From an uncultured Candidatus Saccharibacteria bacterium (GTDB lineage: Bacteria > Patescibacteriota > Minisyncoccia > Phycocordibacterales > JAKAEA01), in assembly GCA_964520645.1 (NCBI GenBank), contig CAZFND010000002.1:9424-73423 (forward strand): a stretch of DNA of 64,000 bases. Direction: 5' to 3'. The first letter of the stretch is position 1. Every line of letters begins with the position of its first letter. The notes under the pieces were generated by a model. The model ran no database searches, had not been told where the DNA came from, and saw only the letters and a list, made by a program, of their open reading frames with translations. Shown piece by piece: positions 14,210-59,684 of the stretch. The translations under genes and the position numbers were made by a program.

Positions 14210-14457
14210 ATTCTTAATATATTATATATAAATACTATTACTACTATTATCACTGTGGATATGTGTATAACTTTATTATGTGGCTGTAAATATAACTTCT
14301 GTGACTAATATTTTTTAAGTATCTTGGGTATAAGTTTTTTTAAGTGTGGGTAGTTTTGTGAATAGTAATTTTTATCCCCATTTTGTTCTTTCTTTTCCCA
14401 CATGTTATATCCTCAGTATCCACATGTTTATCCCCAAACTTATCAACAGATTATTCA
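14210..14457. promoter_or_regulatory. candidate oriC: DnaA-box cluster and AT-rich unwinding stretch in dnaA-dnaN spacer
   Basis: At least 7 matches (7-9/9) to TTATCCACA/TGTGGATAA, e.g. TGTGGATAT 14255-14263, TTATCCCCA 14372-14380 and 14428-14436, TATCCACA 14418-14425, TTATCAACA 14442-14450; AT-only run 14215-14250. Confidence 0.6.
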
Positions 14458-15970: not shown

Positions 15971-16105
15971 ATGTCTAGAACATACAATCCTAAAAAAGGA
16001 AAGCGAGTAAAAACTCATGGTTTCTTAGCTCGACAATCTACCCCTGGTGGAAAGAACACTATAAAGCGCCGACGCGCAAAGGGACGCAAGAAGCTTACTG
16101 TCTAA
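15971..16105 (+). CDS. rpmH: 50S ribosomal protein L34
   Basis: [44 protein letters not shown]; start set at internal ATG 15971. Confidence 0.9.
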
Positions 16106-16480: not shown

Positions 16481-17194
16481 ATGACACACGGATTTTTTGC
16501 CACATTATTTTATATACCTATCTATAACGTTCTTATTTTTGTTATTAATTCTATTCCCGGCCATAGTGCAGGAATCGCTGTTATTGCTGTGACGGTTATT
16601 ATTCGTCTTGTGCTCTACCCCCTTTCTCGAAAATCTATCAAAACACAGCTTCAGATGCGTCAGATTGAGCCGGAAGTTCAAAAAATTAAGGAAAAGGTAA
16701 AAGATCGCCAAGAACAAGCTCGTCAGCTCATGCAGCTTTATAAAGATAAAGATGTAAATCCATTTGCAGGATTATTCCTTATCCTCATTCAGTTCCCTAT
16801 TCTTATTGGACTCTATCGAGTTTTTATTAGTGGTTTGCCAAAGATCGATGCAACACTCCTCTATTCATTCGTTCATATGCCAGCATCTGTAGGAATGACC
16901 TTTCTTGGCATCAATTTAATGCAGAAGAGTATTATTGTCGCTATTCTTACGGTTATCACTCAATTTATTCAGCTCAATCTTGCGCTTCCTTCTGTTAAAA
17001 AAGGAGACGATGCTTCATTTAAAGGTGATCTTGCGTATAGTATGAATATGCAGATGAAGTACATCTTCCCACTCATTATCTTCCCTATTGCTTATATTTC
17101 TGCCGTTATTGGTCTTTACCTTCTTACAAGTAATATCTTTATGATCTTCCAAGAACTCTACGTACGGAAGACACTTAAGAAGCACTATAAATAA
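16481..17194 (+). CDS. yidC: membrane protein insertase YidC (short form)
   Basis: 237 aa multi-TM protein with YidC/Oxa1 core; rpmH-rnpA-yidC synteny. Confidence 0.8.
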   Translation: MTHGFFATLFYIPIYNVLIFVINSIPGHSAGIAVIAVTVIIRLVLYPLSRKSIKTQLQMRQIEPEVQKIKEKVKDRQEQARQLMQLYKDKDVNPFAGLFLILIQFPILIGLYRVFISGLPKIDATLLYSFVHMPASVGMTFLGINLMQKSIIVAILTVITQFIQLNLALPSVKKGDDASFKGDLAYSMNMQMKYIFPLIIFPIAYISAVIGLYLLTSNIFMIFQELYVRKTLKKHYK

Positions 17195-18436
17195 TTATCG
17201 AGTAGTTGTAGCTGTTGAAGTACTAAGTTTGTAGCTCCACAACGTTGAATCTTTTTTGTTGGTAAAAAGGAGATAATTTTCACTATCACTAAGTATTGGG
17301 TTTATTACATCTATACTCTGCTTGTATGCACCAGTAAGGCTTACAATAAGTTGTCCTAGTCCTGTTACGGCGTTTATTTTATAAATGTCATCAGTAAATG
17401 AGACTCTTCCCTGGTACCAGTTGTTAGGATATGTTCCTTCGGGAATAGATGTTGGAATTCCGCAGTAAATAATATTCTTTTCTTTTGTAGACCATACACA
17501 CTTTTCGCTCAAGGTGTTCACAAAAGCTCCCTGAGAAGATCCGGTTTTTATAGTATAGAAATAAAGTCGTGCTGTATCATTTGAATATGCAACTGTAGAG
17601 AGTGAGGGGTTTGCTAGTGTTGTAAGACCAGGAACTCCACCTAGTACTTTTTTAACTGTACCGCTCGTAGAAAGGAAATACATACTTCCTGGTACACCTG
17701 ATGCAGCCTTAGATGTAAGTGCAATTGTATTATCTGACGGCCATGAGGCAAGCCACTCTCCTACAGGAGAACTCCATATTTGAGAAGAAGCTCCCTTTGC
17801 AGAAATAAGTATCCCTCGCGCTCCCCCACTAGTAGTGGTTATATAAAACATCTGTGTCTTTTGAGGAGAAATAGCAAGATTATCAATATTTGTTGACATC
17901 AATGTGCCTTTCAATTCGTTTTTAATAGTTGTGTCTGGAGATGAGCTACTTGTTTTTACTAATTGTGCGTTTAATGTATTAATTACCTCATTATCTGACA
18001 CATATCGTAATACGGTGGTGCTTCCATTATTCATCCAGTATGATTCTTGAATTTTTGGAATTGTAGTATTTGAAATTTTTGTCATTACACCAGTCACTAG
18101 ATCTACATCAAAAATATGACTTGAAGCAAGATCTGCATAGCGTGCTTTAGTTGATGTTTTTGTTTCAAGAACGATACCGTTGCCTGCTGGTTCGGTAGAG
18201 AGATGCATAAGTGCATCTACGGGGATTCTTAGTGTTGTATCTCCACGTACTCCCCCATTATTTTGCCCTGTACCACCATTATTTGTAGCATTACCAGAAC
18301 TACCAAATGGTAAATCGGTATTTGCTTGGTCTAGTGGTGTCTTTGTTGTTGTCTTTTTAAAAAATAAAATATACACAGATACACCGACTGCTAGTACAAA
18401 GAATATGAGACTGATAATAAGTATTTTTTTGAGCAT
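17195..18436 (-). CDS. membrane-anchored beta-rich protein (last gene of T4SS-like operon), function unknown
   Basis: N-terminal TM helix, Gly/Asn-rich linker, S/T-rich beta-rich ectodomain. Confidence 0.4.
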   Translation of the reverse strand: MLKKILIISLIFFVLAVGVSVYILFFKKTTTKTPLDQANTDLPFGSSGNATNNGGTGQNNGGVRGDTTLRIPVDALMHLSTEPAGNGIVLETKTSTKARYADLASSHIFDVDLVTGVMTKISNTTIPKIQESYWMNNGSTTVLRYVSDNEVINTLNAQLVKTSSSSPDTTIKNELKGTLMSTNIDNLAISPQKTQMFYITTTSGGARGILISAKGASSQIWSSPVGEWLASWPSDNTIALTSKAASGVPGSMYFLSTSGTVKKVLGGVPGLTTLANPSLSTVAYSNDTARLYFYTIKTGSSQGAFVNTLSEKCVWSTKEKNIIYCGIPTSIPEGTYPNNWYQGRVSFTDDIYKINAVTGLGQLIVSLTGAYKQSIDVINPILSDSENYLLFTNKKDSTLWSYKLSTSTATTTR

Positions 18437-18440
18437 ATAT

Positions 18441-18857
18441 TTAGAGTTTGATATTGAGTAAGTCGGGTATTCTTGTTAAATCTGGATTAATTGTAGTTAA
18501 GAGTAGATATGAAATAGCGATAAGGAGCATTCCCCACAATGTACGCTGAATAATTGTCTTCCCCTCCAGTTTATTAGAGTATGCATCAGTAGACATATAA
18601 AGAAGCCCGCCATAAATAATAACAACAACAGCAAGTATTGATGTGATACCGATAGCAATAAAGAACATTGCTCGGATATATCCTGGCAAATCTGTAGGAA
18701 CAGGATTGCCCGTATTGTCTTTTATTGGTGCCAAAGGAACGTATGTTGTGTTATCTAATGCTGTTTGTGCCTGAGCAGTTCCAATAAGAATAGTATTAAA
18801 CAAGACTAAGCTGAGCAGTGCTACCATTCCCCATTTTTTTGAGATAGATGTCATCAT
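18441..18857 (-). CDS. VirB2/TrbC-like pilin candidate
   Basis: 138 aa: signal peptide (…GTAQA-QT) then two hydrophobic helices separated by a short polar loop, the architecture of T4SS pilins; found within VirB4 operon. Confidence 0.35.
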   Translation of the reverse strand: MMTSISKKWGMVALLSLVLFNTILIGTAQAQTALDNTTYVPLAPIKDNTGNPVPTDLPGYIRAMFFIAIGITSILAVVVIIYGGLLYMSTDAYSNKLEGKTIIQRTLWGMLLIAISYLLLTTINPDLTRIPDLLNIKL

Positions 18858-19888
18858 TGTGCCTTAAAATTCATTGTTACCCCGCTTCCTGCATACTGAA
18901 GCAATCCTGTTGGAGATTTTATAGAAACACTTACGTTTGATGCCCCACTTGTTCCTTGAGGAGGACGAAGAGTAATCATGTTTGTGCTATTTACTTGAGA
19001 TACAGGACTGCCGTTAATTGACCAGCTGTAATTGAGAAGTGTACCATCGTGAGCTGTTGGTGTACTAAAGTAGTATGGTGCAGCTTTTACTCTAATTTCA
19101 GCGTTCTTCAAATCATATGATGATCCCAATGCTTGATTGTAGCGTGTACCATAAAGTGGATTGTCTTCGTACATAAGGACTACAGGAGCTTGAGGGTTAA
19201 TACTTACACGTCCAATACCTGAGAAACTTACAGCAGAATCTGCTGATGTTACTTTTACAGAAATGTTAAGTGGTCGTAGGATAATAGATCCTTGAAGGCG
19301 AATACTGTCTTTGCCATATCCAGAAGCTGAACCAATAACACCGCTATCAGTTTCCCAGGTGTACACAAGCGTTTTGGGATCTGCCATTACTCCATTGACT
19401 ACATAATTTGGGAGAGCTGCTACGGTGATTTCTCCTTGGTATGGGAAAAGTCCCTTCCCTTTATAAAATGGTGGTGTATATGTATGTGCATCCCACACTA
19501 GATCTACTTCAGCGGGAGAAATAGTGATAGTTTTAATGATTGGAAGTCCAGAAGATGTAATAATTGCTGCCGCAACTTCCTTTGTTGTTCCATTTGCTCC
19601 CGCTTGTACTACTACTGAGGTAAGTCCCTTCCCCGAGTTGATCTTAGTACCATTTATAGACCATATAATTGTCGTGGTATTTAGATCAATAGAAAAACTT
19701 TTAATACTAACTGTTGTATTTTGATTTGGTTTAGGAAATTCAGGATTTATTTGAATAGTAACTGGATCATTACCCGGCAATACTTGTGCCTGGGTACTTG
19801 GAGCAACAACAAATAAGGATAGAGCTATGAAAATTCCTATGACAAACGTGGTTTTGATGTTCATGGGAAGAATAATTGTTCTATACAT
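18854..19888 (-). CDS. secreted beta-rich protein, unknown function (T4SS-like operon)
   Basis: Signal peptide …APSTQA-QV; Ig-like/beta-sandwich composition. Confidence 0.4.
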   Translation of the reverse strand: MYRTIILPMNIKTTFVIGIFIALSLFVVAPSTQAQVLPGNDPVTIQINPEFPKPNQNTTVSIKSFSIDLNTTTIIWSINGTKINSGKGLTSVVVQAGANGTTKEVAAAIITSSGLPIIKTITISPAEVDLVWDAHTYTPPFYKGKGLFPYQGEITVAALPNYVVNGVMADPKTLVYTWETDSGVIGSASGYGKDSIRLQGSIILRPLNISVKVTSADSAVSFSGIGRVSINPQAPVVLMYEDNPLYGTRYNQALGSSYDLKNAEIRVKAAPYYFSTPTAHDGTLLNYSWSINGSPVSQVNSTNMITLRPPQGTSGASNVSVSIKSPTGLLQYAGSGVTMNFKAQ

Positions 19889-19932
19889 TATACTATACCT
19901 TCTATCTATAGCACTGTGTATTACGTATTACC

Positions 19933-20391
19933 CTACTCTGCGTTTTTTCGGGGCACGGTAGCTATTCTTCCTGATGTACCCTGCACAGTGTTTCTGTTGG
20001 GTTTTATGCTTCGCTCGGTGATACCTGGTTGTTTATTATAAATAGCCTGAGTTTTATTTAATGCCTTTTCTCCCATCGGGATTTGTTCTTTTGCTATCTG
20101 TTCTCCATTAATAATAAGAATATTCAACAACACACCCAATGTAATTTCGGGTAGTATACTGAGAATAGGAATAAACCCAATAATAAACGACACCACTACG
20201 CTACCCATAAGTTTATTATTTTTTGTAAAAGGAAAACCTAATTCTCTAAACCAGAAAAAGAAAATAAGCCATGCGAGTACATCAACCACAATGTTTACTA
20301 TTGGAATGAGGCTTATAAGATCAAGCACAGCTGCAGTACAGATCATTGCTAATGCTGTTACGGTAGATATTTTTTTTACTGAGTTACTCAT
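19933..20391 (-). CDS. small polytopic membrane protein (T4SS-like operon)
   Basis: 3-4 predicted TM helices; 4 bp from VirB4 stop. Confidence 0.4.
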   Translation of the reverse strand: MSNSVKKISTVTALAMICTAAVLDLISLIPIVNIVVDVLAWLIFFFWFRELGFPFTKNNKLMGSVVVSFIIGFIPILSILPEITLGVLLNILIINGEQIAKEQIPMGEKALNKTQAIYNKQPGITERSIKPNRNTVQGTSGRIATVPRKNAE

Positions 20392-20393
20392 AG

Positions 20394-22190
20394 TTATGAC
20401 GTCATGTCTTCCTTTGCCTTCTTAATTGCAAGAATTTGAGATGGGTCAGAGGTAATAATTTGATCCTCAGTATATGAAGCAATGATCTTAATGGCGACGT
20501 GCTTTACACCTGCAAAGAAAATTCCCTCCCCCACTGCAGATTCAAGCAACAAATATTTTTCTTCGTCAGTAAGACTGAAGGTTTGTTGAAGTTTGTCTAT
20601 TGATGATGGAGATTGCTTAAGGAGAAGCTGGATAGATGAGTTTGTAATAATAGGAAGTCCGTATGGAGACTTAAGGAAATCATCCACGTCTTGAGTAATT
20701 GTCGCAAGACCGAGGTAATACTTTCGTCCTCGCTTAGCAAGACCAAGCAAGAATGATGCGGTATCTTCTGATTTCATCATCCACCATGCTTCATCAATTA
20801 CGAGCAATCGCTTCTTAATATTCTTTCGAATAGTGTTCCAGATATAGTGAGTCACTATATACATAGCAATAGGCTTAAGTTCATCTTCCATGTCTCGTAC
20901 TGAGAAGACTATGAACTTTTTGTTCATATCTACGTTTGTTGGCTGATTGATGAAGCCTGACCAAGTACCCTTTGTGTATTTAGAAAGTCGCTGAACGAGT
21001 GATCCCCCTCCTTCCATACCACTCAATACCATTTCAAAGTCAGAGAGAAGTGGTGGTTCGTTTTTTGAGAAATCACTTTCTGACGTAATGTCTTTGAGTG
21101 CATATGTTTCGGTGATAGCACGGTCGATAATAGCATCTTCTTCTGGAGTGAGGCCTCCCATCATAATGCGGAAAAGGCCTACAAGATTAATAATATTGGA
21201 TCGCAATACACTTGCTGGAGATTCATCTGGTCCTATAGGAGGAAGATCGAAGGGATTGATGTGGTGTTCTGAGTTAAGAGATATGTTGAAGTAGCGCCCC
21301 CCTGTTGCCTCAGCGAGGTATTCGTATTCTCGTTCTGGGTCAATAACAATAACTTCAGTATCAAACATGAGGGTTCGGAGAATTTCGAGCTTTGTTGTAT
21401 ATGATTTTCCAGAACCTGACTTGGCGAAGGTAATGGAATTGTAGTTTTCGAGAGAAAATCGATCAAAGAGGACCAAGCTTGAGTTGTGACGATTGATTCC
21501 ATAGAGTATTCCCCTATCTGACGTAAGGTCAAATGATACGAATGGGAATAAACTTGAAAGTGGAGATGAATTGAGCTTTGACGTCACAGCTAATTCATCA
21601 TTCAAGAGCGGAGTCATTGTTCTAAATCCTTGTTCTTGTTGGAAAAGTGCAGGCTTTACGTAAATAAGCTTAGATTCAAGCATTGATTTTATTTCCGACT
21701 CTACTTTATCCAATTCTGCTTCTGAATCTCCATAAATAGAAATATAAAGCCCAACATCGAAGAGCTTTTCTTGTGCTTGTTGAAGCTGATCTCGAAGATT
21801 TTCGAGGTCTTGGTAGGCGGTGTCGAGCATTGGGTCTCGGACGAGGCCCTTCTCTTCTCGAATAGATATCTGACTTTGTACTTCAGCTACTTTTTTCTGA
21901 AATTGTCTCAATACTGCTGCTGTTTCGATGGGATTGATATAAATAGAAACGTCGAAAATCTTATCAAGATTGATAATAGGAGAAAACCAACTTTCCATAA
22001 GAAAGCGTGGGTATGAAATAACGAAGAATGTTCGTACTATTTTTTCTCCCAAGTTAAGAGACTTTGGAGATACCTTAAGTGCAGATGGTGCAATAATATC
22101 CTTTAATTCAAGGGCAGCAGCTTCATACATCTGATTTGGAAGGAATTGAAGTGGTTCTTCTTTCTTTTTTAAAAAATCAAAAATACCCAT
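20394..22190 (-). CDS. VirB4/TraC/CagE-family conjugative ATPase (ATPase portion)
   Basis: Walker A FAKSGSGKSYTT, VIDPEREY, Walker B LLVIDEAWWM, TQDVDDF; AAA_10-type domain. Confidence 0.8.
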   Translation of the reverse strand: MGIFDFLKKKEEPLQFLPNQMYEAAALELKDIIAPSALKVSPKSLNLGEKIVRTFFVISYPRFLMESWFSPIINLDKIFDVSIYINPIETAAVLRQFQKKVAEVQSQISIREEKGLVRDPMLDTAYQDLENLRDQLQQAQEKLFDVGLYISIYGDSEAELDKVESEIKSMLESKLIYVKPALFQQEQGFRTMTPLLNDELAVTSKLNSSPLSSLFPFVSFDLTSDRGILYGINRHNSSLVLFDRFSLENYNSITFAKSGSGKSYTTKLEILRTLMFDTEVIVIDPEREYEYLAEATGGRYFNISLNSEHHINPFDLPPIGPDESPASVLRSNIINLVGLFRIMMGGLTPEEDAIIDRAITETYALKDITSESDFSKNEPPLLSDFEMVLSGMEGGGSLVQRLSKYTKGTWSGFINQPTNVDMNKKFIVFSVRDMEDELKPIAMYIVTHYIWNTIRKNIKKRLLVIDEAWWMMKSEDTASFLLGLAKRGRKYYLGLATITQDVDDFLKSPYGLPIITNSSIQLLLKQSPSSIDKLQQTFSLTDEEKYLLLESAVGEGIFFAGVKHVAIKIIASYTEDQIITSDPSQILAIKKAKEDMTS

Positions 22191-22191
22191 A

Positions 22192-22842
22192 TTAGCTTAA
22201 TTTAATTGGTTTTTCGGTCTCACCAGGATTGAAAAGCTTGTAAAATAGTTCGACTACTTCTTCGGTACCAAGCTGTGCGACACGGATACCGCAGCGTGTT
22301 AATCCTTGCTCTACTACAGAAATACGCTCTTCAAGCTGTGCTCTACTCTCTTCAAAGAGTTCATCATCCTTTTTTCGTGCCGCATCCCCTTCCTTCTTTT
22401 TAAATGGATTAAGTGAAAGTGAAGAAGCTCCTGTCTTAAGAAGTGCGGGAGAATATGGAATCACAATAAAGAAACTTTTTGTCATGATATTGGTAGTGTC
22501 TGTAAAGTTCTTGATGAATCCAATATATTCTTGTGTTTGGATTTTCATGAGGTCAGATGCTTGTTTCTTTTTTCGTTCTTCAAGAAGCGCAATATAAGGA
22601 GCAATATTGAGTCGGCGAGATTCGATGAATATTTGGATCGAGAAATCGAGTGAGTTTAATAAATCCTGAAATTGAGTCAAAATAGCTCCCTGCTCGTCTT
22701 CTGACTTAAGCGCAAAGTTGAGAGATGAAGCAAGAATAATAGCTCGCATTGAGCCGTCTTTAAGAATAGCCAAGCCATCTCTAATTTCTTTTATCGGTAC
22801 AAAATCTTGTGTTGATTTTCCAGCAAGAGGTGCCATATTCAA
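22192..22842 (-). CDS. VirB4 N-terminal domain encoded as separate ORF (split virB4)
   Basis: 216 aa with Gram-positive VirB4 N-terminal pattern (PIKEIRDGLAILKDGSMRAIIL…). Its stop TAA sits 1 nt before the ATG of the ATPase ORF; combined length 814 aa matches full VirB4. Confidence 0.5.
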   Translation of the reverse strand: MNMAPLAGKSTQDFVPIKEIRDGLAILKDGSMRAIILASSLNFALKSEDEQGAILTQFQDLLNSLDFSIQIFIESRRLNIAPYIALLEERKKKQASDLMKIQTQEYIGFIKNFTDTTNIMTKSFFIVIPYSPALLKTGASSLSLNPFKKKEGDAARKKDDELFEESRAQLEERISVVEQGLTRCGIRVAQLGTEEVVELFYKLFNPGETEKPIKLS

Positions 22843-22884
22843 TTATTGTATCACTACTTACTATGAATCCCCAGTGAATATCTT

Positions 22885-23319
22885 TTATTCTTCTTCAGGT
22901 TTTTGTGCTGGGGCAGTCCCCTTTGTGTCGAGACTCCATGTCATATCTTTCAATTTGCTATTAGAAATATTTGGGATAATAGAATTGGGACTGTTTGTGA
23001 AATTTACAGGGATACTTTTGGTAACCGTTTCTTCTTTTTTTCTCCAGATATAAAGCTTAGGACCAAAGTAATACGTAATTGCTGATTCGACGACAAAGAT
23101 GAAGGGTTTGTTATTTACTTTATAGAATGCTAACGCTACTGCAAATGCAGCAACAGGAATTATCAGCAAGATTGCTAAATAGAAAGAGATTGGAGATACT
23201 GAGAGATAAATAATCAATGACAACCCTGCCCCACCGATAAGGTAGATAAACTGACGAAATGTTAATGGGCCGAAGATTTTGTCTTCAACTTCAATAAATT
23301 GAGGAACTTGGTACTTCAT
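22885..23319 (-). CDS. PrgI/TcpE (VirB3-like) family membrane protein
   Basis: N-terminal …EDKIFGPLTFRQFIYLIGGAGLSLIIYL… followed by two TM helices, the PrgI-family architecture; immediately upstream of virB4. Confidence 0.5.
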   Translation of the reverse strand: MKYQVPQFIEVEDKIFGPLTFRQFIYLIGGAGLSLIIYLSVSPISFYLAILLIIPVAAFAVALAFYKVNNKPFIFVVESAITYYFGPKLYIWRKKEETVTKSIPVNFTNSPNSIIPNISNSKLKDMTWSLDTKGTAPAQKPEEE

Positions 23320-23348
23320 ATAACCTTATTTTCTCATGAGGCTTACTT

Positions 23349-24095
23349 TTATTCAATCACTTCTCGATACGGATCTTTATTAAGGAGTTCATTACGAGGA
23401 GAACCACTTGGCAATTCTGCATTGTGAGGAGCTTGTGGAAGGTTTTCAGGGATCTTCACGTCTTGTTTTGGCATACTTGTTGTTGCGCTCAGTCGAGTAT
23501 TCATAATAGAAGGCGCTGCTGGGGTCACAGGTCGAGTGTAAGCTGTGGTTACTTGCTTTAAGGGAGTAATATTCTTTACTGCTTGAGCAACATCCTGTGC
23601 GGTAAATTGTGGTTTTGGCGCAGTAGTCATTTGGCTAGGAGTTGAGATAGGCTTTTGTACTTGAGAAAGAAGAATAGATGGCGCACTCTTTTGTGTTTGT
23701 GGCGCGCTCGGTGTGCTATATGTCATCTGAATCTTTTGAGCGTTCATTGCTTGGATAGATGTGGGAGTGGGTTCAGTCTTCTTTGCCTCCCCTTCGAGAA
23801 GTGTATGTGCTGGCGCTAGAATGACATTACCTACATCAAGTACTACACTATTTGCATCTTCAGGGCTTACTTTATAGAGAGAGGTAAGATTTTGTGTAAA
23901 TTCTGTAATTGAGCTTACGCCAACAAGGAGAGCAAATATATTTTGTGAGAATGCATCAAATATAGAATCATCAATTCCATACTTCCCTGCTATAGCGTCT
24001 ACAGACTCTGCTACTTCATCTGACATGATGAAGTCTTGCAATGTGCCAGGAAGCTTTTGAAATGCATCATTTAGTTGTGTTTGAGTGTAATTCAT
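23349..24095 (-). CDS. hypothetical protein with globular N-domain and Pro/Thr/Gln-rich disordered C-terminus
   Basis: ORF in operon; low-complexity composition. Confidence 0.4.
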   Translation of the reverse strand: MNYTQTQLNDAFQKLPGTLQDFIMSDEVAESVDAIAGKYGIDDSIFDAFSQNIFALLVGVSSITEFTQNLTSLYKVSPEDANSVVLDVGNVILAPAHTLLEGEAKKTEPTPTSIQAMNAQKIQMTYSTPSAPQTQKSAPSILLSQVQKPISTPSQMTTAPKPQFTAQDVAQAVKNITPLKQVTTAYTRPVTPAAPSIMNTRLSATTSMPKQDVKIPENLPQAPHNAELPSGSPRNELLNKDPYREVIE

Positions 24096-24101
24096 AGTGT
24101 T

Positions 24102-26690
24102 TTAACCAACAAAATTATTTGACGGTGGTGTCTGAGGTGCTGGTTGTGGGTTATTTGCTGCTGTTTGTGTAGGTGCGGGTTGAGGAGCCGCCGCAGGTGC
24201 TGCATTTGCTGTTTGGTTAGTTTGTTGTGCTGTTGGGTTATTGAGATTGATCAATTTATCACGAGTCTCCTTACTTATTTTTTGATTTTTAGTAATAGCT
24301 AAGATATCTTGTTTATCAAAATATTTATTAATTTTAGGGTTCAAAAGAAGATCAGATGGTAAGTCCTTAAGAAGATTTTGCTCAATTTTTTGAACGTCCT
24401 CAGCTTTAATTTCCTCACCTTTTACAAGTTTGTCTCTAAGTTTATCTTCTGCTGCAGCAAGTTTTTCTTCCTGATTAAGTTTCTTTGATCGTGTCTTATC
24501 AAGGAAGTCTTGAGCAGCTTGCTTATGACCTTCTACTGTACTTCTAAATCGAACATTAAATCTTCCAGGAGTTGCTAACTGAGCAGCATACTTTTTCTGT
24601 TCCTCTTCTATCTCTCGTGCTTTTGCTCTCTCATATGATTTAAGCTTGGTTTCTGCTTCCTTAATTGCATCTGTACGTTTTTTGAGTTCTACAGGATCAG
24701 TTACTCCATTTGCTACAACTTCTGTATAATCAGATTTTGCTTTCTTTATAGCTTCTTTACTATTTGTAATATTCTGTAGAGTTTCATCTGAAGCCTTGCC
24801 TACACTTAGAATATCATTTTCTCCTTGCTTCTTACGTGTTTCTAATACAGCTTTATATCCCCCTACCCCAGTATTAGTATTCAAGCCAAATTTTTCTCCT
24901 GTCTTTGTGTTTCGAGCGTCAAAGCTTGCTTTAGCAAGTTTTTCGGCAGTGGCAAGTTTTGCTTCAGCTGTTTTTCGAGTTATTGCATTTGCTGAAAGCG
25001 CATCTTTTCTCCATTGTTCTTCATTACTCTTTAGAGTTGTAAGAGCTCGTTTACCTACTGTATTACGCAATGCTGCTGCTGTAGCGCCGGCTGTTGCACC
25101 TCCTGCTGCACGTTTAGAGTATGAAGTAATTCTGTCTGTTCCCCACTTTCCTACTGTACCCACTATTGCTGCACCTTGAGTTGCATAGCTTTTTGCAACA
25201 TTTGTTGCCACATGAATGAAGACGATAACAAGAATAAAGTTGATCACAATACCCGTGTTGCTACCCACAGAGTCTACATTGAGTGCGTCGGAGAACCCGC
25301 CACTTGCCCCCGTCATTTTCTTAAGATTATCTAAGAGTATAAAGAGTACCCAGAAGAGTGCCATAAAGAGAGGAGCAAAAATAAGCTGGCCCATGAGGGT
25401 ATCCCACCATTTTTTTGCTGTTGCCTGAGTTGCAGGGAGCGTCCACGCCACAAAGGCTATAGGAGATAGAACAAGAAGGACAATAAGGACGACAAATCGT
25501 AGGACAAACAACCAGGCAATAGTAAGAAACGTAAATGCTGTAATAAGCATGAAGACAGATCCTCCTATAGCAATAAGAAATATCTTGTCATAGCCTGTTT
25601 GTGCGGATGCTTTTGATGGATCAAGCCCCATTCCTCCGTAGATAGTTGCAAGGCCAACTGAGTTCATGATTTTTCCTCCAAATCCTTTACACTGAACGCC
25701 TGCAAATTTCTCACATGCATATTGGGTGTTTTGGTCTACTGCGAGCGCTCTATAAAAACCTAGGGTTACAATGTTTGAGGCATCGATTGCTGCTTTTGTA
25801 AAAAAGAGACTGAAGTTAATAAGAAGACCAATAATAATTATTTTTATAAGAGTGTTTTTTGTTGCCCCAGTCAATCTTCCTAGGATAATAAGCACGGTGA
25901 TATACAGCAGGGCAAAAATAAATATCATATTTGCTAGATCTCGAAAAACTGTCCAGGCTGTAGTGATTGAAGGTGCTCCTTTTATAAACTCAGCCATGTT
26001 AAGGACAGTATATGTAAGGATTTGGTTTAGAATAAGAGCACAGAGGCCAAGTATGTATCCACAGAGTGTCAGGATAATATAAGCAACTCCTGCAACAACC
26101 TGCTTTACACATATCCACCAATTGATAAATGGAATTCCATAACTAGTACCAAAACATACGTTTTCTTGAGATGATTTTGCATTGCTGACATCTTGTTGTG
26201 TTGCTGCGTTTCCATTATTTACCTGATTGTTGTGTGCTTGAGCAGCAACTAAATCTGTGTTTGCACCAGCATAATCTCCTTGCTGAGCCTTATTTATTGC
26301 ACTATCACTAAGAGTTTGCACCTGAGTTGCTTGTCCTTGTGCTAGGGTTACTTGCCTATTTGCCGAATCAAGGGCTCGTTGAGCATTATCACAATTAGTG
26401 TTTGTTGTACACGCAGTTCCACTGAGGTTTGGGTATGCATCACGAGCTTGTTGTGCATTATTTGCAACTATTTTTGCATTTTGTAGATTTGTATTTGCAG
26501 TTGCAACTTGTTGGGCAGCAGCAGCTTTTATTTGATCAACTTTTACTGTATCAACTTGAGGTGTGGGTGTTGAGGGTTGTGTTGTTTGAGCTTCTGCTTG
26601 ATTTAATAAAAGTGTAGAGAAGTTGAAAGGCGCAGCAAAAGTGCTGATGAGAAGAAGTGCTGTAAATAATGATGTAAGTATTTTTTTCAT
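24102..26690 (-). CDS. VirB6/TrbL-like polytopic membrane protein with Q/A/N-rich N-tail and charged coiled-coil plus P/Q/A-rich C-tail
   Basis: 862 aa; signal peptide, ~7-8 TM helices in residues ~180-520, long K/E-rich helical region, terminal PQ-rich repeat. Confidence 0.5.
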   Translation of the reverse strand: MKKILTSLFTALLLISTFAAPFNFSTLLLNQAEAQTTQPSTPTPQVDTVKVDQIKAAAAQQVATANTNLQNAKIVANNAQQARDAYPNLSGTACTTNTNCDNAQRALDSANRQVTLAQGQATQVQTLSDSAINKAQQGDYAGANTDLVAAQAHNNQVNNGNAATQQDVSNAKSSQENVCFGTSYGIPFINWWICVKQVVAGVAYIILTLCGYILGLCALILNQILTYTVLNMAEFIKGAPSITTAWTVFRDLANMIFIFALLYITVLIILGRLTGATKNTLIKIIIIGLLINFSLFFTKAAIDASNIVTLGFYRALAVDQNTQYACEKFAGVQCKGFGGKIMNSVGLATIYGGMGLDPSKASAQTGYDKIFLIAIGGSVFMLITAFTFLTIAWLFVLRFVVLIVLLVLSPIAFVAWTLPATQATAKKWWDTLMGQLIFAPLFMALFWVLFILLDNLKKMTGASGGFSDALNVDSVGSNTGIVINFILVIVFIHVATNVAKSYATQGAAIVGTVGKWGTDRITSYSKRAAGGATAGATAAALRNTVGKRALTTLKSNEEQWRKDALSANAITRKTAEAKLATAEKLAKASFDARNTKTGEKFGLNTNTGVGGYKAVLETRKKQGENDILSVGKASDETLQNITNSKEAIKKAKSDYTEVVANGVTDPVELKKRTDAIKEAETKLKSYERAKAREIEEEQKKYAAQLATPGRFNVRFRSTVEGHKQAAQDFLDKTRSKKLNQEEKLAAAEDKLRDKLVKGEEIKAEDVQKIEQNLLKDLPSDLLLNPKINKYFDKQDILAITKNQKISKETRDKLINLNNPTAQQTNQTANAAPAAAPQPAPTQTAANNPQPAPQTPPSNNFVG

Positions 26691-26693
26691 CGT

Positions 26694-28709
26694 TTATTTT
26701 ACAATTACCGTTCGAATCGCCGTAGTTGCTGGTAATCCCCCACTGTCCTTCACGTCATAATTGATGACATACGTACCCGGAACTGTTGTATTTACTGTAC
26801 CTGTTACTACTACTTGCGCAGTGAGTGTTGCTTCGTCATCAGTCTCATCCTTTGCCACATATCCTGGTTCTGTGAATGTTGAGTTCAGTGGAATTGTCAT
26901 CTGGGTTTGTCCTTTCAAACCTATAATTGGAGGGTTGTTAGCAAAGACTTCCATTTCGGGAATAGTAAGATATTCAACTTTATTATATGTAGATTGAATT
27001 CGAACATAGCGTCCTTTTATATTTGGGGGAAGATTAAGGGTATATGGATTTTGATAGTTTTGTATGAGAACATCACTTGTCCAAATAGGCAGTGCACTTC
27101 CTCCTGAACGATTTCCCTGACTGTCACTTGGTGCAGTGTCGAACACTTGAACAACAAATGTAAGTTTCGTACCAAGCCCATATGACCATGGGTCATGTCG
27201 CTGATAAACAACAATTTTACTGAGGTCAAATAGTTTGTTCAAATCTACTTCAATCCATTGAGCTGGATTACTAGGAGGTCCGAAATATTCATTCATTGGT
27301 CCTGTATATCCTACATATGCTTGCCAATCTGCTTGATCACCATTTACAAGTTTTGAAGGATAATAACCATTACTACCGCTATCTTTACGGATACTTGATG
27401 CATATACTGATTTATTTAGTGCAACATTCACCTGAGGTTGGACATATGTTGATCCACTAGGAGTACTAATTGCTATATCTTCTGGTTTATATGATTGAAC
27501 TTGGTTAACATTATCCTGATAAGTATTGTATGAAGAAGAACAAGCAGCTTGAGCATCATTGGTAATCTGACCTATATTAGTATTAGATGATGAAGTTTGT
27601 TTACATGCTGATTGAAGGACTTGTTGTACAGTAGGTGGTGTGTGTGTACCTCCCCCTCCTCCTGAAGAGCGATTTGCACCAAGCAATCCCCCAGCACCAC
27701 TAATAACTGTCTGGAAGAGTTGGTTGGCAAGAGCATTAAAGATTTTATCAAGATCATCTGCAAGGCCAAGCTGCTCAGCGGGTACATCGAGCTGATTTTG
27801 GAGTGTGCCACCAATCACCTTTCCTGGTGTTTGTATCTGGCAATCATCTCCAGGAGAGCGTCCTCCAAAGCTTGCATTGTTACCTGCTACTCCAAATGAT
27901 CCTGATCCTCCATATTGGTTATAGCTTGTTCCATCTGCTGATGTACATTCTGACCATGAAAGGAATCCCCCACCCCAACTAAGTTTTGCAGCTTCAATTC
28001 CTTGTCGGCCACCAATTCGAGCACCCATTTTTGACGATGCTTTAAGGTAACTTCCGTATGGATTGTTATTATCACTCACACTAATTTTAAACCAGTCATC
28101 CCAGGTTTGTTGTTCGAAGTTGGTGATGGCACCATCAATGTTGTTGAGAACTTGTGTGAGTGTACAACGTGGAGTCCCAGGACCTTCTGAACCGTATGAA
28201 TAATCGAGCGCAAGTTGAAGTTGAATTTGTAGTTTAAATGGACTACAGAGAAATGCGAGATCAGAGCCCAAGATGAATTCTCCAGCAATTTGGTCTGCTA
28301 TATCGAGGGCAAATTGGCCGGGATTGCTAATAAATGCGGGTTTACCTTCAAATCCAGAGTTGATCCAAGTAACGATTTGCTGAGTCATTTGTTGAAGGAT
28401 AAATTTTCCAATTGCGAGAGCTAGACCGTGCTCGATACAGTCCTTCATGAGTGTTGATTGACTTGCTCCTGCTTGGGCTCCAGAGGTAAAGATCTGTCCA
28501 GCAGCAGATACTGGTACTGAGAGTGCTGCTGCGGCAGCAGATGCAGTAGTGTTCAATCCTACCGCTGCAAAAAATTGTGGAAGACAACTTGAGAAGCCGG
28601 CTTCTGCCTTTTTGGGTGGCATAGTAAGAAGACTAAAAGGCACTACAAGTATAATTGCGAGGAAGAGGCTTATTATTTTTTTATACATTGATACGTGCAT
28701 ACTCTCCAT
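26694..28709 (-). CDS. large secreted protein with discoidin (F5/8 type C)-like and C-terminal DUF5011-type Ig-like domains
   Basis: Signal peptide; region …QWIEVDLNKLFDLSKIVVYQRH…GRYVRIQ resembles F5/8-type-C; C-terminus …TVPGTYVINYDVKDSGG…RTVIV resembles DUF5011. Confidence 0.45.
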   Translation of the reverse strand: MESMHVSMYKKIISLFLAIILVVPFSLLTMPPKKAEAGFSSCLPQFFAAVGLNTTASAAAAALSVPVSAAGQIFTSGAQAGASQSTLMKDCIEHGLALAIGKFILQQMTQQIVTWINSGFEGKPAFISNPGQFALDIADQIAGEFILGSDLAFLCSPFKLQIQLQLALDYSYGSEGPGTPRCTLTQVLNNIDGAITNFEQQTWDDWFKISVSDNNNPYGSYLKASSKMGARIGGRQGIEAAKLSWGGGFLSWSECTSADGTSYNQYGGSGSFGVAGNNASFGGRSPGDDCQIQTPGKVIGGTLQNQLDVPAEQLGLADDLDKIFNALANQLFQTVISGAGGLLGANRSSGGGGGTHTPPTVQQVLQSACKQTSSSNTNIGQITNDAQAACSSSYNTYQDNVNQVQSYKPEDIAISTPSGSTYVQPQVNVALNKSVYASSIRKDSGSNGYYPSKLVNGDQADWQAYVGYTGPMNEYFGPPSNPAQWIEVDLNKLFDLSKIVVYQRHDPWSYGLGTKLTFVVQVFDTAPSDSQGNRSGGSALPIWTSDVLIQNYQNPYTLNLPPNIKGRYVRIQSTYNKVEYLTIPEMEVFANNPPIIGLKGQTQMTIPLNSTFTEPGYVAKDETDDEATLTAQVVVTGTVNTTVPGTYVINYDVKDSGGLPATTAIRTVIVK

Positions 28710-28712
28710 GTA

Positions 28713-29714
28713 TTATCCAACTAAATGGGCAAACGAATACCCTGGCTCCCCTTGCCCAAAGACTATCCCCTGTAATTTAAAGTATAAATTTACTGCCTGG
28801 AAAATAACTCCAGTATCCGTTGCTACATCTTGATATCGCTTTACTGCAGCAAGTGTAATAACAGGATCCTTGAGGAGCTTAGCAAGACCTTGATCTACCT
28901 CTATTACCTGGCTGAAATTATTGAGGATATTTATGTGAAGTGATACCGCACTACTTGGAACAGGTACGGAGAGAAATCCCTTAAGCATATTTTGGTATGA
29001 TGTGATGATTGCATTTAGTTGGGCAATATCCTTTGGATCTTGGCTATCAACTGCGCGTTCAATAATAATCAATTCATTTTCAGGATTTTTGGGAGCGTTA
29101 GTCAAAATGACTTGGCCCATTGCATTGCCATATGCGCGAAGTGCATCAGCAGAATTTGAAGAATCGATTCTAAAATCTTTTTGGGTGTATGTTTTTGCAG
29201 ATGAAACACCAAATGTAGTTCGTCCGATGATATTTGCTGCTATTTCTTCTTGAATTTCAGGTGTAATGTTTCCACCAGTCTTGCGAAGACTCATATAGTC
29301 ACTAAATACTTCTCGAGCGAGTGCTTGAGTTGCTGTTTCATCTTTTGATGAAGTAGTTGTTGTGGCTGCAGTTGCAACAGTTGATCCCCCATTATTCTTA
29401 TCTTTAGGACCTTTTACAAGAGGGTTTCGCTCAGCTTTTATTTCTGCACCATCTGATGTGCCGTCTCCATCTGTGTCAGCCTTACGAGGATCTGTACCAA
29501 TGAGCACCTCTTCCCAGTCAGGAAGACCATCATTGTCTGAATCTTTTGTATTTACCTCAGTTTGAATATTATTTTCAGGAATTACTGAAAGAATTTGTTG
29601 TCGTGAACTTATTGTTGTAGATTTTGGAGAATAAAGAGCCGCAAAAACAATACCGCCTACTGCAGCCACACATGCAATAATGATTGGTATAATTTTTTTT
29701 GAAGGTAAGGCCAA
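28713..29714 (-). CDS. membrane-anchored protein with thrombospondin type-3 (Ca-binding) repeats; first gene of T4SS-like operon
   Basis: N-terminal TM; DSDNDGLPDWEEV…DTDGDGTSDGAE repeats. Confidence 0.45.
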   Translation of the reverse strand: MALPSKKIIPIIIACVAAVGGIVFAALYSPKSTTISSRQQILSVIPENNIQTEVNTKDSDNDGLPDWEEVLIGTDPRKADTDGDGTSDGAEIKAERNPLVKGPKDKNNGGSTVATAATTTTSSKDETATQALAREVFSDYMSLRKTGGNITPEIQEEIAANIIGRTTFGVSSAKTYTQKDFRIDSSNSADALRAYGNAMGQVILTNAPKNPENELIIIERAVDSQDPKDIAQLNAIITSYQNMLKGFLSVPVPSSAVSLHINILNNFSQVIEVDQGLAKLLKDPVITLAAVKRYQDVATDTGVIFQAVNLYFKLQGIVFGQGEPGYSFAHLVG

Positions 29715-29796
29715 GGTATTGCAATACTATTTCCATATATTATAGCAGCTCATGGGGAAATGTTGTTAATTTCCTGGGGATAAATCGTGATATACT

Positions 29797-30900
29797 GTGG
29801 ACATGTATCGAAAAATTTATTTTTTCTACGGTGTGATTCTATTTTTCTTACTTTTTACGGGTTTTGCATCTATTGAGTCAGTGCATGCACAGGTTTCTTC
29901 AAATAATTTTCTATTTACTAGAAGTTTGAAGCTTGGAGACAATAACAATGATGTAATAATGCTTCAAAAAGTGTTAAACAGTAGCCCAGATACCCAGATT
30001 GCCTTCTCAGGAGTGGGGTCACCAGGCCAAGAAACTACTTATTTCGGCCTATTAACCCAACGAGCGGTCATAAAATTCCAAAATAAGTATGCTTCAGAAG
30101 TTCTTTTCCCCGGAGGGTTTGTGTCAGGAACTGGCTTTGTAGGGCCATTAACTATCAAAAAACTCAATAATGTATCAGGTATTTTTATTGTATCACAACA
30201 AAATAACCAAAATATACTTAATCCTAGACCTATTTTTGATATTTATAGTACAGATAAGAAAATCCAAGATGCTCAAATTTCGATAGTTCAACAAAACAAA
30301 AATACCCAAAATAAGCCCGATGTAAGCGCTATTTTTAATGATCTCTATAGAGTAGCCATCTATACACTCTCTAAATATAGTGGCGTAAGTGGTAGTACTT
30401 TCACGATAAACGGGGCTGGATTTGATACAAATGGCTCAAACACAGTGTATTTTGGTGGAACATACTCTATAAATGCGACAGTAGTAAATGAAAATGTACT
30501 TTTAGTAAAGATTCCACAAATTCCTGCAGGAAGATACGATCTAGCCGTAAAAAGTAGCTTTGGAATAAGTAATACTAAGTTTTTTGTTGTGACTACTCCC
30601 TCCTCGCCTCAGGTAAGTGTGGCTTCAATTAGCCCTAGTACCGTACGTTTTGGGGATACTATCACGGTAACTGGCGTAGGATTTACCACTAAAAACAATG
30701 AAATTCAAACTAATTTAGGAATTTTTAAGAATATCGGCTCTCCTGATAGCAAAACTATGACATTTACGTTTTCCCCAGAAGTTCTTAGAGATGCAATTGC
30801 AAGCGGAAGGAGTTATAATCAAACGATGAAAGTTACCCTCTATGTAGTAAATGATAATGGTATAACCGTTACCCCTCAATCTTTTAATGTTTCTTTTTAA
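29797..30900 (+). CDS. secreted protein with peptidoglycan-binding-like domain and IPT/TIG-like beta-sandwich repeats
   Basis: Signal peptide …VHA-QV; PG_binding_1-like segment (VIMLQKVLN…GLLTQRAVIKFQ); repeated GxTFTINGAGF / TITVTGVGF modules; divergent from operon promoter. Confidence 0.45.
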   Translation: MDMYRKIYFFYGVILFFLLFTGFASIESVHAQVSSNNFLFTRSLKLGDNNNDVIMLQKVLNSSPDTQIAFSGVGSPGQETTYFGLLTQRAVIKFQNKYASEVLFPGGFVSGTGFVGPLTIKKLNNVSGIFIVSQQNNQNILNPRPIFDIYSTDKKIQDAQISIVQQNKNTQNKPDVSAIFNDLYRVAIYTLSKYSGVSGSTFTINGAGFDTNGSNTVYFGGTYSINATVVNENVLLVKIPQIPAGRYDLAVKSSFGISNTKFFVVTTPSSPQVSVASISPSTVRFGDTITVTGVGFTTKNNEIQTNLGIFKNIGSPDSKTMTFTFSPEVLRDAIASGRSYNQTMKVTLYVVNDNGITVTPQSFNVSF

Positions 30901-31285
30901 TTACATGCTCTTCCTTAATATCATTAAAAAATCATTTGTAGTAACGCTTATTACCCTATTTATCTTTTTCTTTAGTGTGGCTCCTGTATGGGCACAAGGT
31001 GTAAATCCATTCAATTTTGGTGGAATAGTAGCTTTTTCCTATCTTTGTACATGTTCACTCAATTGGGTTGTTACGATTGTTGGTCCTAAGCCTGCTATAT
31101 TGAGTTATTATTACACACCTCAATTTGCGAATTTTCAGCTTCCGCGTATGGGAGTATGGACATTAGGAACATACACACCTGGTGCTGTATGTCTTGATTG
31201 GTATCCCGGATTTCCACCTTTTTGTGCTCCTTCATGGATGGTTCCCTTTGGAACGATCTTACCTCTCGTAGGAACGAGTTTATAA
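30887..31285 (+). CDS. small secreted Cys/aromatic-rich protein
   Basis: Signal peptide …APVWA-QG, 6 Cys in ~95 aa mature part; start may be ATG at 30905. Confidence 0.35.
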   Translation: MFLFNYMLFLNIIKKSFVVTLITLFIFFFSVAPVWAQGVNPFNFGGIVAFSYLCTCSLNWVVTIVGPKPAILSYYYTPQFANFQLPRMGVWTLGTYTPGAVCLDWYPGFPPFCAPSWMVPFGTILPLVGTSL

Positions 31286-34569: not shown

Positions 34570-34826
34570 ACTCTATTTTTTATTTTTTGTGGAAGTCATT
34601 TTTTATCCCCAAGGGTGTGGATAGCAGTCGATTGACATAAGATTCTCATAGTTTATAGTTACTGAGTCATCTAATTTTCGATGACTCAGTGCAAATTCCG
34701 ACCGCTTTTTTATGGCTTAATGAAGCCATTTTATACCGACACACTGTTTTATCCCTTAAAATTAGGCTTATTTTACGCATTCCCCAGGATCCTAAGCAGT
34801 CTGTTCAAAAATCTTCGACTGTTTGG

Positions 34827-41992: not shown

Positions 41993-42925
41993 ATGGATTT
42001 AGAGCTTTTAAAGAAGGATTTCCTTGATTATACCGAGATAGAAAAAGGTAGAAGTCTTAAGACTCGAAGGAACTACGATCACTATTTAACCGTGTTTTTA
42101 AGCCATACTAAGCTCAAACACCCCCAAGATATTACCGATGATGTCCTTCGAGAATACCGCCTCTGGCTCAACCGTCAGCCTGCTCGGCTTAAGGAAGGCA
42201 CACGAGCTTATGAAGGAATTCACGAAAATCTCAAAAAAAGAACTCAAAACTATTATTTAATCGCACTTCGAGCATTTCTTAAGTATTTAGTGCGACGAGA
42301 TATTACGTCATTGTCGCCAGAACGTATAGAATTAGCCAAAGTTCCTGAGCGCTCTCTCGATCTCATCTCCTCCGAGGAGCTTGATCGACTCATGAAGGCT
42401 CCCGATGGTGCAGACCTTAAGAGTTTGCGTGATAAAGCAATACTAGAACTCTTTTTCTCTACCGGACTTCGTGTATCTGAGCTCTGTTCCCTTCCTCGAG
42501 AGCTTGATATCAAGAAAGATGAATTCTCTGTGCGAGGGAAAGGCGGAAAGGTTCGGGTTGTTTTTCTTTCAGAAAATGCTCGCCAAGCACTAGCTGCATA
42601 TCTTAAAGAAAGAAAAGATATGGATGATGCTCTCTTTGTGCAGATTTCCAAAAATCAGAATGATAAACAATCTCTCAGACTTACTGCGCGCTCTATCGAA
42701 CGCATCATCAAACATTATGCAATTAAAGCAGGAATATCAAAGAAAGTGACTCCTCACGTAGTACGACACAGCTTTGCTACAGATTTACTCCAGAATGGCG
42801 CTGATTTGCGCTCAGTCCAAGCCCTCTTAGGTCATGCCAATATTGCTACGACACAGATTTATACCCACGTTACCGATAAGCACCTCAAAGAAATTCACAA
42901 GAAGTTCCATAATAAAGGAAAATAA
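41993..42925 (+). CDS. xerC: tyrosine recombinase XerC/XerD family
   Basis: R…K…HxxR…Y catalytic residues ([24 protein letters not shown]). Confidence 0.8.
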
Positions 42926-45782: not shown

Positions 45783-45853
45783 GCGGGTATGGTTTAGTGG
45801 TAGAATACGTCCTTGCCAAGGATGAGACGGGAGTTCGATTCTCCCTACCCGCA
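45783..45853 (+). tRNA. tRNA-Gly (anticodon GCC)
   Basis: Acceptor GCGGGTA/TACCCGC, anticodon loop TTGCCAA, T-arm GGGAG-TTCGATT-CTCCC. Confidence 0.75.
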
Positions 45854-46757: not shown

Positions 46758-46763
46758 CACGTA

Positions 46764-58010: not shown

Positions 58011-58011
58011 T

Positions 58012-59229: not shown

Positions 59230-59230
59230 T

Positions 59231-59683: not shown

Positions 59684-59684
59684 T

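Follow-up and report, generated by a model that had tools for sequence, protein, structure and literature searches.

We analysed a 64,000-nucleotide stretch of contig CAZFND010000002.1 (assembly GCA_964520645.1; hereafter the window), in which eleven co-directional open reading frames (ORFs) on the minus strand, from position 17195 to 29714, encode a type IV secretion system (T4SS) next to the probable replication origin. The locus is very likely a chromosomal T4SS of the Patescibacteria (candidate phyla radiation, CPR) in the form typical of the class Paceibacteria, which would derive from the MPF-FATA group, be inherited vertically beside oriC and serve an epibiotic lifestyle. It is of a kind already known, a typical Paceibacteria member of a relaxase-free system that almost every ultra-small member of the Patescibacteria has beside its replication origin and that was described between 2023 and 2025. 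Its genes are most likely used for cell-cell or host interaction rather than for self-transfer. A previous sequence-only reading had proposed a chromosomally fixed T4SS, devoid of relaxase and type IV coupling protein (T4CP) and repurposed for another function; every component check agrees with that proposal, which also matches what has been published on these bacteria (Wang et al., 2023, Cell, PMC10633639; Quinonero-Coronel et al., 2025, Microb Genom, PMC12102498).

A conserved T4SS gene cluster between yidC and rsmA

From position 29714 down to 17195, the cluster encodes proteins of 333, 671, 862, 248, 144, 216, 598, 152, 344, 138 and 413 amino acids (aa). The spacings between the ORFs are -4, 1, 2, 3, 3, 4, 6, 29, 42 and 44 nt, so that a single junction overlaps by 4 nt and the remaining ones are short gaps. 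This co-oriented and tightly spaced arrangement fits translational coupling. The tight packing had been seen correctly in the sequence-only reading, which was slightly loose in describing overlaps of 1-4 nt and placed the upstream end of the operon at 28713; the actual end is 29714, as the first gene occupies 28713-29714.

For comparison, one genome per GTDB species was scanned, and 80 related loci were chosen by VirB4 similarity from metagenome-assembled genomes of Zambryski-, Taylor- and Campbellbacteria and other Patescibacteria. Synteny was counted in the 40 loci, all from different GTDB species, that have full 10-kb flanks (21.8 kb), with window positions 13109-34016 as the part compared. 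All 40 loci contain dnaA, yidC, virB4, trsD, prgI and the genes of the 413-aa and 344-aa proteins. dnaN and the VirB6-like gene are present in 39, the pilin gene and the 671-aa gene in 38, rsmA in 36 and the 333-aa gene in 33. Relative position and strand agree with the window for nearly every match. The median identities are 81% for VirB4, 64% for TrsD, 64% for DnaA, 53% for DnaN, 53% for RsmA, 50% for PrgI, 46% for YidC and 27-39% for the accessory proteins; VirB4 is therefore more conserved than every neighbouring housekeeping protein (DnaA, DnaN, RsmA and YidC), a difference that is somewhat inflated by the VirB4-based choice of the 80 loci. The G+C content of the cluster (0.37-0.42) equals that of its flanks.

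These identities show strong purifying selection. Judged by sequence comparison, the cluster is an ancient, vertically inherited chromosomal locus and not an insertion, because the same genes, gene order and core-gene neighbours recur in essentially all 40 loci and VirB4 is conserved above DnaA. The term "inserted" in the sequence-only reading was accordingly misleading: at the junction of yidC and rsmA, where a synteny comparison had been suggested, the cluster occupies the same site in 36-40 of the 40 related loci, with a G+C content like that of its surroundings.

VirB4 motor and its separate N-domain

The 598-aa protein (20394-22190) is a VirB4-type ATPase that lacks the usual N-terminal domain. 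It matches PF19044 (P-loop_TraG, E 7e-27), AAA_10 and DUF87 in Pfam, and it scores 375.8 bits against the NCBIfam model conju_CD1110 (curated cut-off 325) over profile positions 165-733 of 752. The translation contains intact Walker A (GSGKS) and Walker B (VIDEAW) motifs. The search for homologues yielded more than 8000, and the best 120 share 82-100% identity with the window protein; where their source is named, it is Paceibacterota, Parcubacteria or other Patescibacteria. Outside the phylum, the VirB4 proteins that come nearest are encoded on plasmids of Clostridium, Bacillus and Streptomyces; they share 29-35% identity and belong to the CD1110 family. The best NCBIfam models are CD1110 (Clostridioides difficile CTn2 type) and the VirB4 of the Mycoplasma integrative and conjugative element (ICE). 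As judged from identities and profiles, the ATPase would be of the Patescibacteria type, with MPF-FATA as its nearest group outside the phylum.

The missing N-domain is encoded separately, by the 216-aa TrsD-like gene immediately upstream (22192-22842). Its product matches VirB4_plasma (1.3e-12), CD1110 at positions 2-118 and TrsD (NF041427, 3.5e-5) in NCBIfam. The junction of the two genes reads TAA-T-ATG, in which the stop codon of trsD is followed by one nucleotide and the start codon of virB4. The TrsD-like gene is a separate ORF in 76 of the 80 related loci, and its homologues stand alone in 149 of the best 150 representatives, with lengths of 157-443 aa. A frameshifted VirB4 pseudogene was considered and is ruled out by the conservation of this two-gene state. 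On the sequence evidence, the split VirB4 is the ancestral and normal state, since 149 of the best 150 TrsD-like representatives stand alone. The sequence-only reading had called the ATPase "VirB4-like (split)". The profile searches place it in the VirB4 family, with CD1110 above its cut-off, and the family assignment holds; taking the split as damage does not, as the N-domain is normally a separate gene.

Membrane platform and pilin

The 144-aa protein (22885-23319) is a PrgI/VirB3-like membrane protein, which matches PF12666 with an E-value of 1.7e-11 and 44.9 bits against a gathering score of 27. The 862-aa protein (24102-26690) is an extended, polytopic VirB6-like membrane protein, assigned through homologues, orthologues and structure prediction. 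It comprises a signal peptide, an N-terminal region that is variable and of low complexity, a conserved transmembrane (TM) core (~aa 200-560) and a variable charged C-terminal region. Homologues are annotated as PF19590 (TrbL_3) or PF19597 (TrbL_4), and six of 52 syntenic orthologues match PF04610 (TrbL, TrbL/VirB6). Its AF2 model has a pLDDT of 86 and a pTM of 0.83. In a Foldseek search of this model against the PDB, the six best matches are all TrwI/VirB6 of R388, with probabilities of 0.87-1.0, TM-scores of 0.29-0.49 and E-values of ~0.02-0.2.

The 138-aa protein (18441-18857), which consists of a signal peptide and two hydrophobic helices, is assigned by orthology as a VirB2-like T4SS pilin. 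Its gene lies 1.5 kb from virB4. It shares 23-42% identity with 57 syntenic orthologues. Among the 58 aligned sequences (these 57 and the window copy, which is itself unmatched), PF18895 (T4SS_pilin) is matched by 52 and TrbC/VirB2 by three. Sequence profile searches of the PDB with the pilin and VirB6-like families gave only coiled-coil, calcium-repeat or immunoglobulin (Ig) noise. All three components had been proposed from the sequence alone and are borne out, PrgI/VirB3 by a match above the gathering score, the VirB6-like protein by TrbL_3/TrbL_4 homologues, TrbL-matching orthologues and TrwI structural matches, and the pilin candidate by the PF18895 matches of its orthologues.

Polymorphic pilin extensions in relatives

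The window pilin is a short form without C-terminal extension. The syntenic pilin of relatives typically has ~300 aa and reaches ~500 aa, mostly two to three times the length of the window copy. These extended pilins share the module of signal peptide and two helices, which is followed by a polymorphic C-terminal tail; in the related loci, examples are L011:13287-14162, L016:13236-14174, L054:12876-13733, L014:13269-14252 and L029:13517-15016. Among the 41 orthologues whose pilin module has a locatable end, 34 have tails of more than 80 aa. At least 14 unrelated sequence groups can be distinguished among these tails, the largest of which (11 members, 10 of them aligned) contains invariant H, H, D and H-W-H residues together with Cys pairs. 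We take this pattern to resemble that of LAS-type zinc peptidoglycan peptidases at the motif level; Pfam and PDB sequence profile searches gave no support for such an identity of the tails.

The polymorphic extensions are a side observation that may be novel. We raise tentatively the rather doubtful idea that the Paceibacteria T4SS pilus is a display scaffold and not a bare filament, in which the pilin tails and the modules of the 671-aa protein would form a tip and shaft that determine host range and breach the wall. Under this idea, the conserved His/Asp motifs of the two largest tail groups, which resemble those of LAS-type peptidases, would belong to a tip and shaft with which the epibiont opens the host envelope. 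The short window pilin would then be a minimal form that relies on a hydrolase in trans, for instance the nearby LysM-M23 protein. If the tails are displayed, the pilus could present enzymes or adhesins.

Accessory and divergent proteins

Besides these components, the cluster encodes five conserved proteins of the envelope or surface. The 671-aa surface protein (26694-28709) carries Pfam F5_F8_type_C and Bact_surface_Ig-like domains at its C-terminus. Conservation is limited to an N-domain (~aa 90-340), and the C-terminal modules vary: among 36 orthologues, F5/8 type C (lectin) is found in six and Ig-like in three, and InlB B-repeat and Big_7 modules also occur. The N-domain bears four nearly invariant Cys residues and a WINSGF-G-P motif. 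Its homologues are hypothetical proteins, those with a named source almost all from Patescibacteria, and no Pfam match was found in them. A VirB5-like identity of this N-domain was considered and is unsupported by a low-confidence AF2 model that has no Foldseek match. The first operon gene (28713-29714) encodes a membrane-anchored 333-aa protein with calcium-binding TSP3 repeats (PF18884, TSP3_bac, 2.5e-12) and a conserved, mostly helical C-terminal domain.

The 344-aa product (18854-19888) is a secreted Ig-like β-sandwich repeat protein, as suggested by a signal peptide found by inspection and weak Ig hits (a weak PKD_6 match and a Hoc Ig domain at E 0.003). The last operon gene (17195-18436) encodes a 413-aa protein that is N-terminally membrane-anchored and conserved over its whole length; it is probably a β-propeller, on weak fold evidence that includes a weak match of the family to TolB (E 0.026). 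In a pooled Pfam scan of the 413-aa and 344-aa orthologues, BiPBP_C was hit six times, DPPIV_N twice, and PKD_3, Ig_3, PD40 and DUF5050 once each; these hits were not attributed to genes, and assigning the Ig hits to the 344-aa family and the propeller hits to the 413-aa family follows domain logic. PDB sequence profile searches of the 671-, 413-, 344- and 333-aa families returned only coiled-coil, calcium-repeat or Ig noise, the 333-aa family matching solely via its calcium-binding repeats. The conserved parts of these four families match no Pfam or NCBIfam family, and the sections of PMC12102498 that were consulted contain nothing on them.

Two smaller cluster proteins also match no Pfam or NCBIfam family. 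Directly downstream of virB4, a 152-aa polytopic membrane protein is encoded at 19933-20391; an ORF of 110-280 aa with at least one predicted TM helix, mostly two to four, occupies this position in ~27 of 39 related loci. Between the VirB6-like and PrgI genes, 23349-24095 encodes a 248-aa soluble protein without signal peptide or TM helix, in which the N-terminal ~100 aa are conserved and the tail is disordered and rich in Pro, Thr and Gln. A counterpart of ~165-600 aa lies at the same place in 38 of 39 loci and has no TM helix in all but one.

Beyond the first operon gene, a divergent pair of plus-strand ORFs (29797-30900 and 30887-31285) encodes two secreted proteins, as had been described before. 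The first product (367 aa) contains a TIG domain (PF01833, TIG/IPT, 1.4e-10) and a weak PG_binding_1 match (0.0014). Peripheral and only partly conserved, it occurs in 17 of 40 loci, where its relative position is the same and its gene is mostly encoded on the opposite strand. The second is a small Cys-containing protein of 132 aa, which was assigned to no family and is lineage-specific (4 of 40 loci). Adhesin-type modules, as had been claimed for the surface proteins, are present, with F5/8 type C, Ig-like, TSP3 repeats and TIG all detected. In the 82 nt that separate the first operon gene from the 367-aa gene (29715-29796), there is a DnaA-box-like sequence with one mismatch (29775-29783), which may be due to chance.

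Origin context and chromosomal surroundings

Core genes flank the cluster on both the yidC and the rsmA side, in agreement with the sequence-only reading. Downstream lie yidC (16481-17194), rnpA, rpmH (15972-16105, read directly), dnaA and dnaN, and upstream rsmA/ksgA is followed by the gene of a UvrD/PcrA helicase (uvrD/pcrA). The dnaA-dnaN spacer harbours six DnaA boxes with at most one mismatch (14254-14448), which is likely oriC, and a perfect box is located at 15906. The window contains 35 DnaA boxes where 18 are expected, and the cumulative GC-skew reaches its minimum at ~14-17 kb. The distance from the end of the operon to this probable oriC is ~2.7 kb. Far from dnaA, four DnaA-box-like sequences, one of them perfect, form a second small cluster (45940-45991) between tRNA-Gly (45783-45854) and tRNA-Pro (46685-46758). 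In a scan for promoter and terminator consensus sequences, which is uninformative for this organism, promoter-like sites are rarer than in shuffled sequences and terminator-like sites lie within ~1 SD.

Mobility genes were sought with Pfam in window ORFs of at least 150 aa over the whole 64 kb. No relaxase, T4CP (VirD4- or TcpA-type) or phage gene was found among them. The only tyrosine recombinase (41993-42925) is Xer-like (XerC/D), lies 10 kb from the cluster, adjoins an exonuclease III-family gene and is found behind uvrD, a ComM-like gene and pnp; as the integrase of an ICE, it is ruled out by this distance and core-gene context. No tRNA is present at the cluster borders. With no relaxase, T4CP or integrase adjoining, the locus does not qualify as an ICE or a conjugative plasmid; its borders were not screened for direct repeats. 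The absence of VirD4, relaxase, recombinase and phage genes from the cluster, as noted in the sequence-only reading, is borne out, the one Xer-like recombinase of the window being 10 kb away. Directly outside the cluster boundaries, core genes are found rather than the relaxase, VirD4 or integrase that would have made it an ordinary ICE.

The other large ORFs of the window are assigned by Pfam to housekeeping functions, including polA, tsaE, ruvABC, tyrS or trpS, a penicillin-binding protein, the ComM-like protein, pnp and cca, and further rny, clpP, tig, ppa and nusA. A LysM and peptidase M23 cell-wall hydrolase is encoded on the plus strand 3.4 kb beyond the cluster (34689-35846; Peptidase_M23 3.9e-27, LysM 5e-23); tblastn detects it in only seven of 40 loci, a count to be read with its position at the edge of the compared flank in mind. 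M23- and LysM-containing VirB1-like proteins are known in Patescibacteria (PMC12102498), and this hydrolase is a possible candidate for a VirB1-type, wall-opening helper of the T4SS.

The separate type IV pilus operon described previously was found on the plus strand at 56262-62402, headed by the gene of a PilB/GspE-type ATPase and including genes for PilC and pseudopilin-like proteins; a 585-aa protein in this operon belongs to no family. A second, solitary PilB-like (PilB/GspE-type) ATPase is encoded at 4157-5833 on the plus strand. Saccharibacteria reportedly use two distinct type IV pili, which the two PilB/GspE ATPases of the window would fit.

Proposed function and alternative explanations

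In the machine that we propose, hexamers of VirB4 and TrsD would dock on a platform of PrgI/VirB3 and the VirB6-like protein in the single membrane. The VirB4 motor would power the extraction of the VirB2-like pilin and its polymerisation into a short pilus or a conduit through the wall. The propeller-like, Ig-like and calcium-binding proteins may form or stabilise a scaffold that spans the wall, and the 671-aa protein could expose its interchangeable modules, of the lectin and Ig types, to the surface of the host cell. Such a machine would establish host-cell contact and transfer proteins or other cargo across the interface without moving its own DNA. The position next to the origin may raise expression by gene dosage, an effect that has been suggested for the neighbourhood of dnaA, dnaN, rnpA, ksgA and rpmH, which is enriched around the T4SS genes of Paceibacteria and Microgenomatia (PMC12102498). 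By analogy with Southlakia epibionticum ML1, in which the T4SS genes SEML1_0004-0019 are essential for epibiotic growth by transposon sequencing (Tn-seq; PMC10633639), the system is probably essential in the organism of the window.

Several points weigh against this interpretation. When the 138-aa and 862-aa window proteins were scanned directly, neither Pfam nor NCBIfam gave a hit at E-values up to 10, and their assignment as pilin and VirB6-like protein comes from their orthologues and homologues and from structural similarity of moderate TM-score in Foldseek. No ORF of the cluster matches a VirB8-like (NTF2-fold) protein in Pfam, NCBIfam or PDB profiles, and a VirB1-like protein was likewise not identified within the operon. 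For the N-domain of the 671-aa protein, the AF2 model is of low confidence (pLDDT 63) and finds no match with Foldseek. The roles suggested for the five accessory proteins are guesses from topology and weak domain hints, and the function of the system is suggested by homology to a member of the distantly related class Saccharimonadia. A T4CP or relaxase could lie outside the 64-kb window, and VirD4-like genes occur in many genomes of Patescibacteria, mostly at a distance from virB4 (PMC12102498). The VirB4-based choice of loci, mentioned above, belongs to the same side.

Among the alternatives, a pure adhesion or pilus organelle, in which VirB4 assembles a VirB2-type pilus with adhesins and no cargo is moved, is unlikely. 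It would account for the lack of a detected T4CP and for the combination of a pilin with lectin, Ig-like and TIG surface modules, and VirB4 is the pilus-assembly ATPase in other T4SSs (PMC12102498). However, a complete type IV pilus system encoded in the genome already provides for adhesion, and the T4CP-less Ptl and Brucella VirB systems still secrete proteins (PMC12102498). From the extreme conservation of VirB4, adhesion alone and cargo transfer cannot be told apart. Very unlikely is a DNA-uptake machine like Helicobacter ComB or Sulfolobales Ced that imports host DNA or nucleotides. VirB4 does weakly match the DNA-import ATPases CedB and CedD (E 1e-9 and 2e-4), the T4SS genes of class ABY1 co-localise with comF, recG and radA (PMC12102498), and nucleotide synthesis is not present in Patescibacteria (PMC10633639). 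These Ced matches, however, are confined to the shared P-loop region and far below cut-offs, and no competence gene lies inside the cluster. Moreover, deletion of comEC in Southlakia abolishes competence but not viability, whereas the T4SS is essential, so that this essentiality does not act through ComEC-dependent uptake.

Even less probable is a working conjugation or DNA-export apparatus that would use a coupling protein and a relaxase from another part of the genome. The visible DNA is 64 kb of that genome, and VirD4-like T4CP homologues occur in 2,918 of the Patescibacteria genomes, mostly far from virB4 (PMC12102498). Relaxases, in contrast, were found in only 103 of the 3,035 genomes surveyed there, the window scan detected neither relaxase nor T4CP, and the distant T4CP homologue of Southlakia is not essential, unlike its T4SS genes (PMC12102498; PMC10633639). 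A recently inserted or decaying ICE that has lost its relaxase, T4CP and integrase, or carries them just outside, is exceedingly improbable. A CD1110-type VirB4 is otherwise typical of monoderm ICEs and plasmids, and the window does contain a tyrosine recombinase (41993-42925). Against such an origin stand the same gene order at the same core-gene junction in essentially all 40 loci, the conservation of VirB4 above DnaA, the intactness of all ORFs, the flank-like G+C content and the absence of a border tRNA; the recombinase lies 10 kb off behind uvrD, the ComM-like gene and pnp and looks like XerC/D. A vertically inherited T4SS that serves host interaction therefore remains our preferred explanation.

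The T4SS of Patescibacteria belongs to the small number of machines that most classes of this very large radiation of ultra-small, host-dependent bacteria share, and it is essential in the one species tested. The window adds no new kind of system and provides a clean, complete Paceibacteria example. Its quantitative additions are that the motor ATPase is more conserved than DnaA and that a separate N-domain gene is the rule. In addition, four accessory envelope families, the conserved parts of which were assigned to no family, are as syntenic as the core genes. Together with the variable pilin and lectin modules, these families are sensible targets for genetics in Paceibacteria-host co-culture.

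Comparison with known systems

Like the window locus, the Ptl system of Bordetella and the VirB system of Brucella have no VirD4-type coupling protein; they are devoted to cell interaction rather than DNA transfer, the use proposed for the window locus as well. They differ in that they belong to the diderm MPF-T type, possess a VirB7/9/10 core and have known protein substrates. The MPF-FATA systems (Prg of pCF10, Trs of pGO1, CTn2 of C. difficile and the Mycoplasma ICE) share with the window the CD1110-family VirB4, PrgI/VirB3 and a VirB6-type protein. A separate TrsD-type N-domain is common to the window and pGO1, and an outer-membrane core complex is encoded neither in MPF-FATA nor in the window. 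In contrast to the window cluster, which is chromosomal and fixed, lacks DNA-processing genes and includes a VirB2-like pilin, these systems are mobile, carry relaxase, T4CP, oriT, VirB1 hydrolases and VirB8-like proteins, and have no VirB2 pilin.

The T4SS of Southlakia, a member of the class Saccharimonadia, is likewise origin-proximal. Its cluster follows directly after dnaA, dnaN and recF in the order VirB6-like, PrgI, TrsD-like, VirB4 and an array of PF18895 pilins (PMC10633639). The core order and the PF18895 pilins are shared with the window, and neither cluster contains a relaxase or coupling protein. Southlakia differs in carrying a second VirB6-like gene, a divergent array of six pilin genes, proteins of the lysozyme-like and PEGA types and an NTF2-like (VirB8-like) protein, the gene of which is the only dispensable one in the cluster (PMC10633639). 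Instead of these parts, the window has one pilin and the propeller-like, Ig-like, TSP3 and lectin-bearing proteins.

Patescibacteria T4SSs are listed as a recognised T4SS subgroup in a 2025 FEMS review (PMC12857230). The closest description is that of the Paceibacteria in the survey of Quinonero-Coronel et al. (PMC12102498), according to which 2,425 Patescibacteria VirB4 proteins form a monophyletic clade nested in MPF-FATA, genes for TrsD, PrgI/VirB3, VirB6 and a VirB2-like pilin adjoin virB4, and VirB8 is rarely found outside class ABY1. The window shares with this arrangement the MPF-FATA affinity of VirB4 and the adjacent TrsD, PrgI/VirB3, VirB6-like and VirB2-like genes. Neither has a relaxase or T4CP gene in its neighbourhood, and both lie beside dnaA, dnaN, rpmH, rnpA and ksgA. 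The window has a single short pilin and not a pilin array; nothing essential differs.

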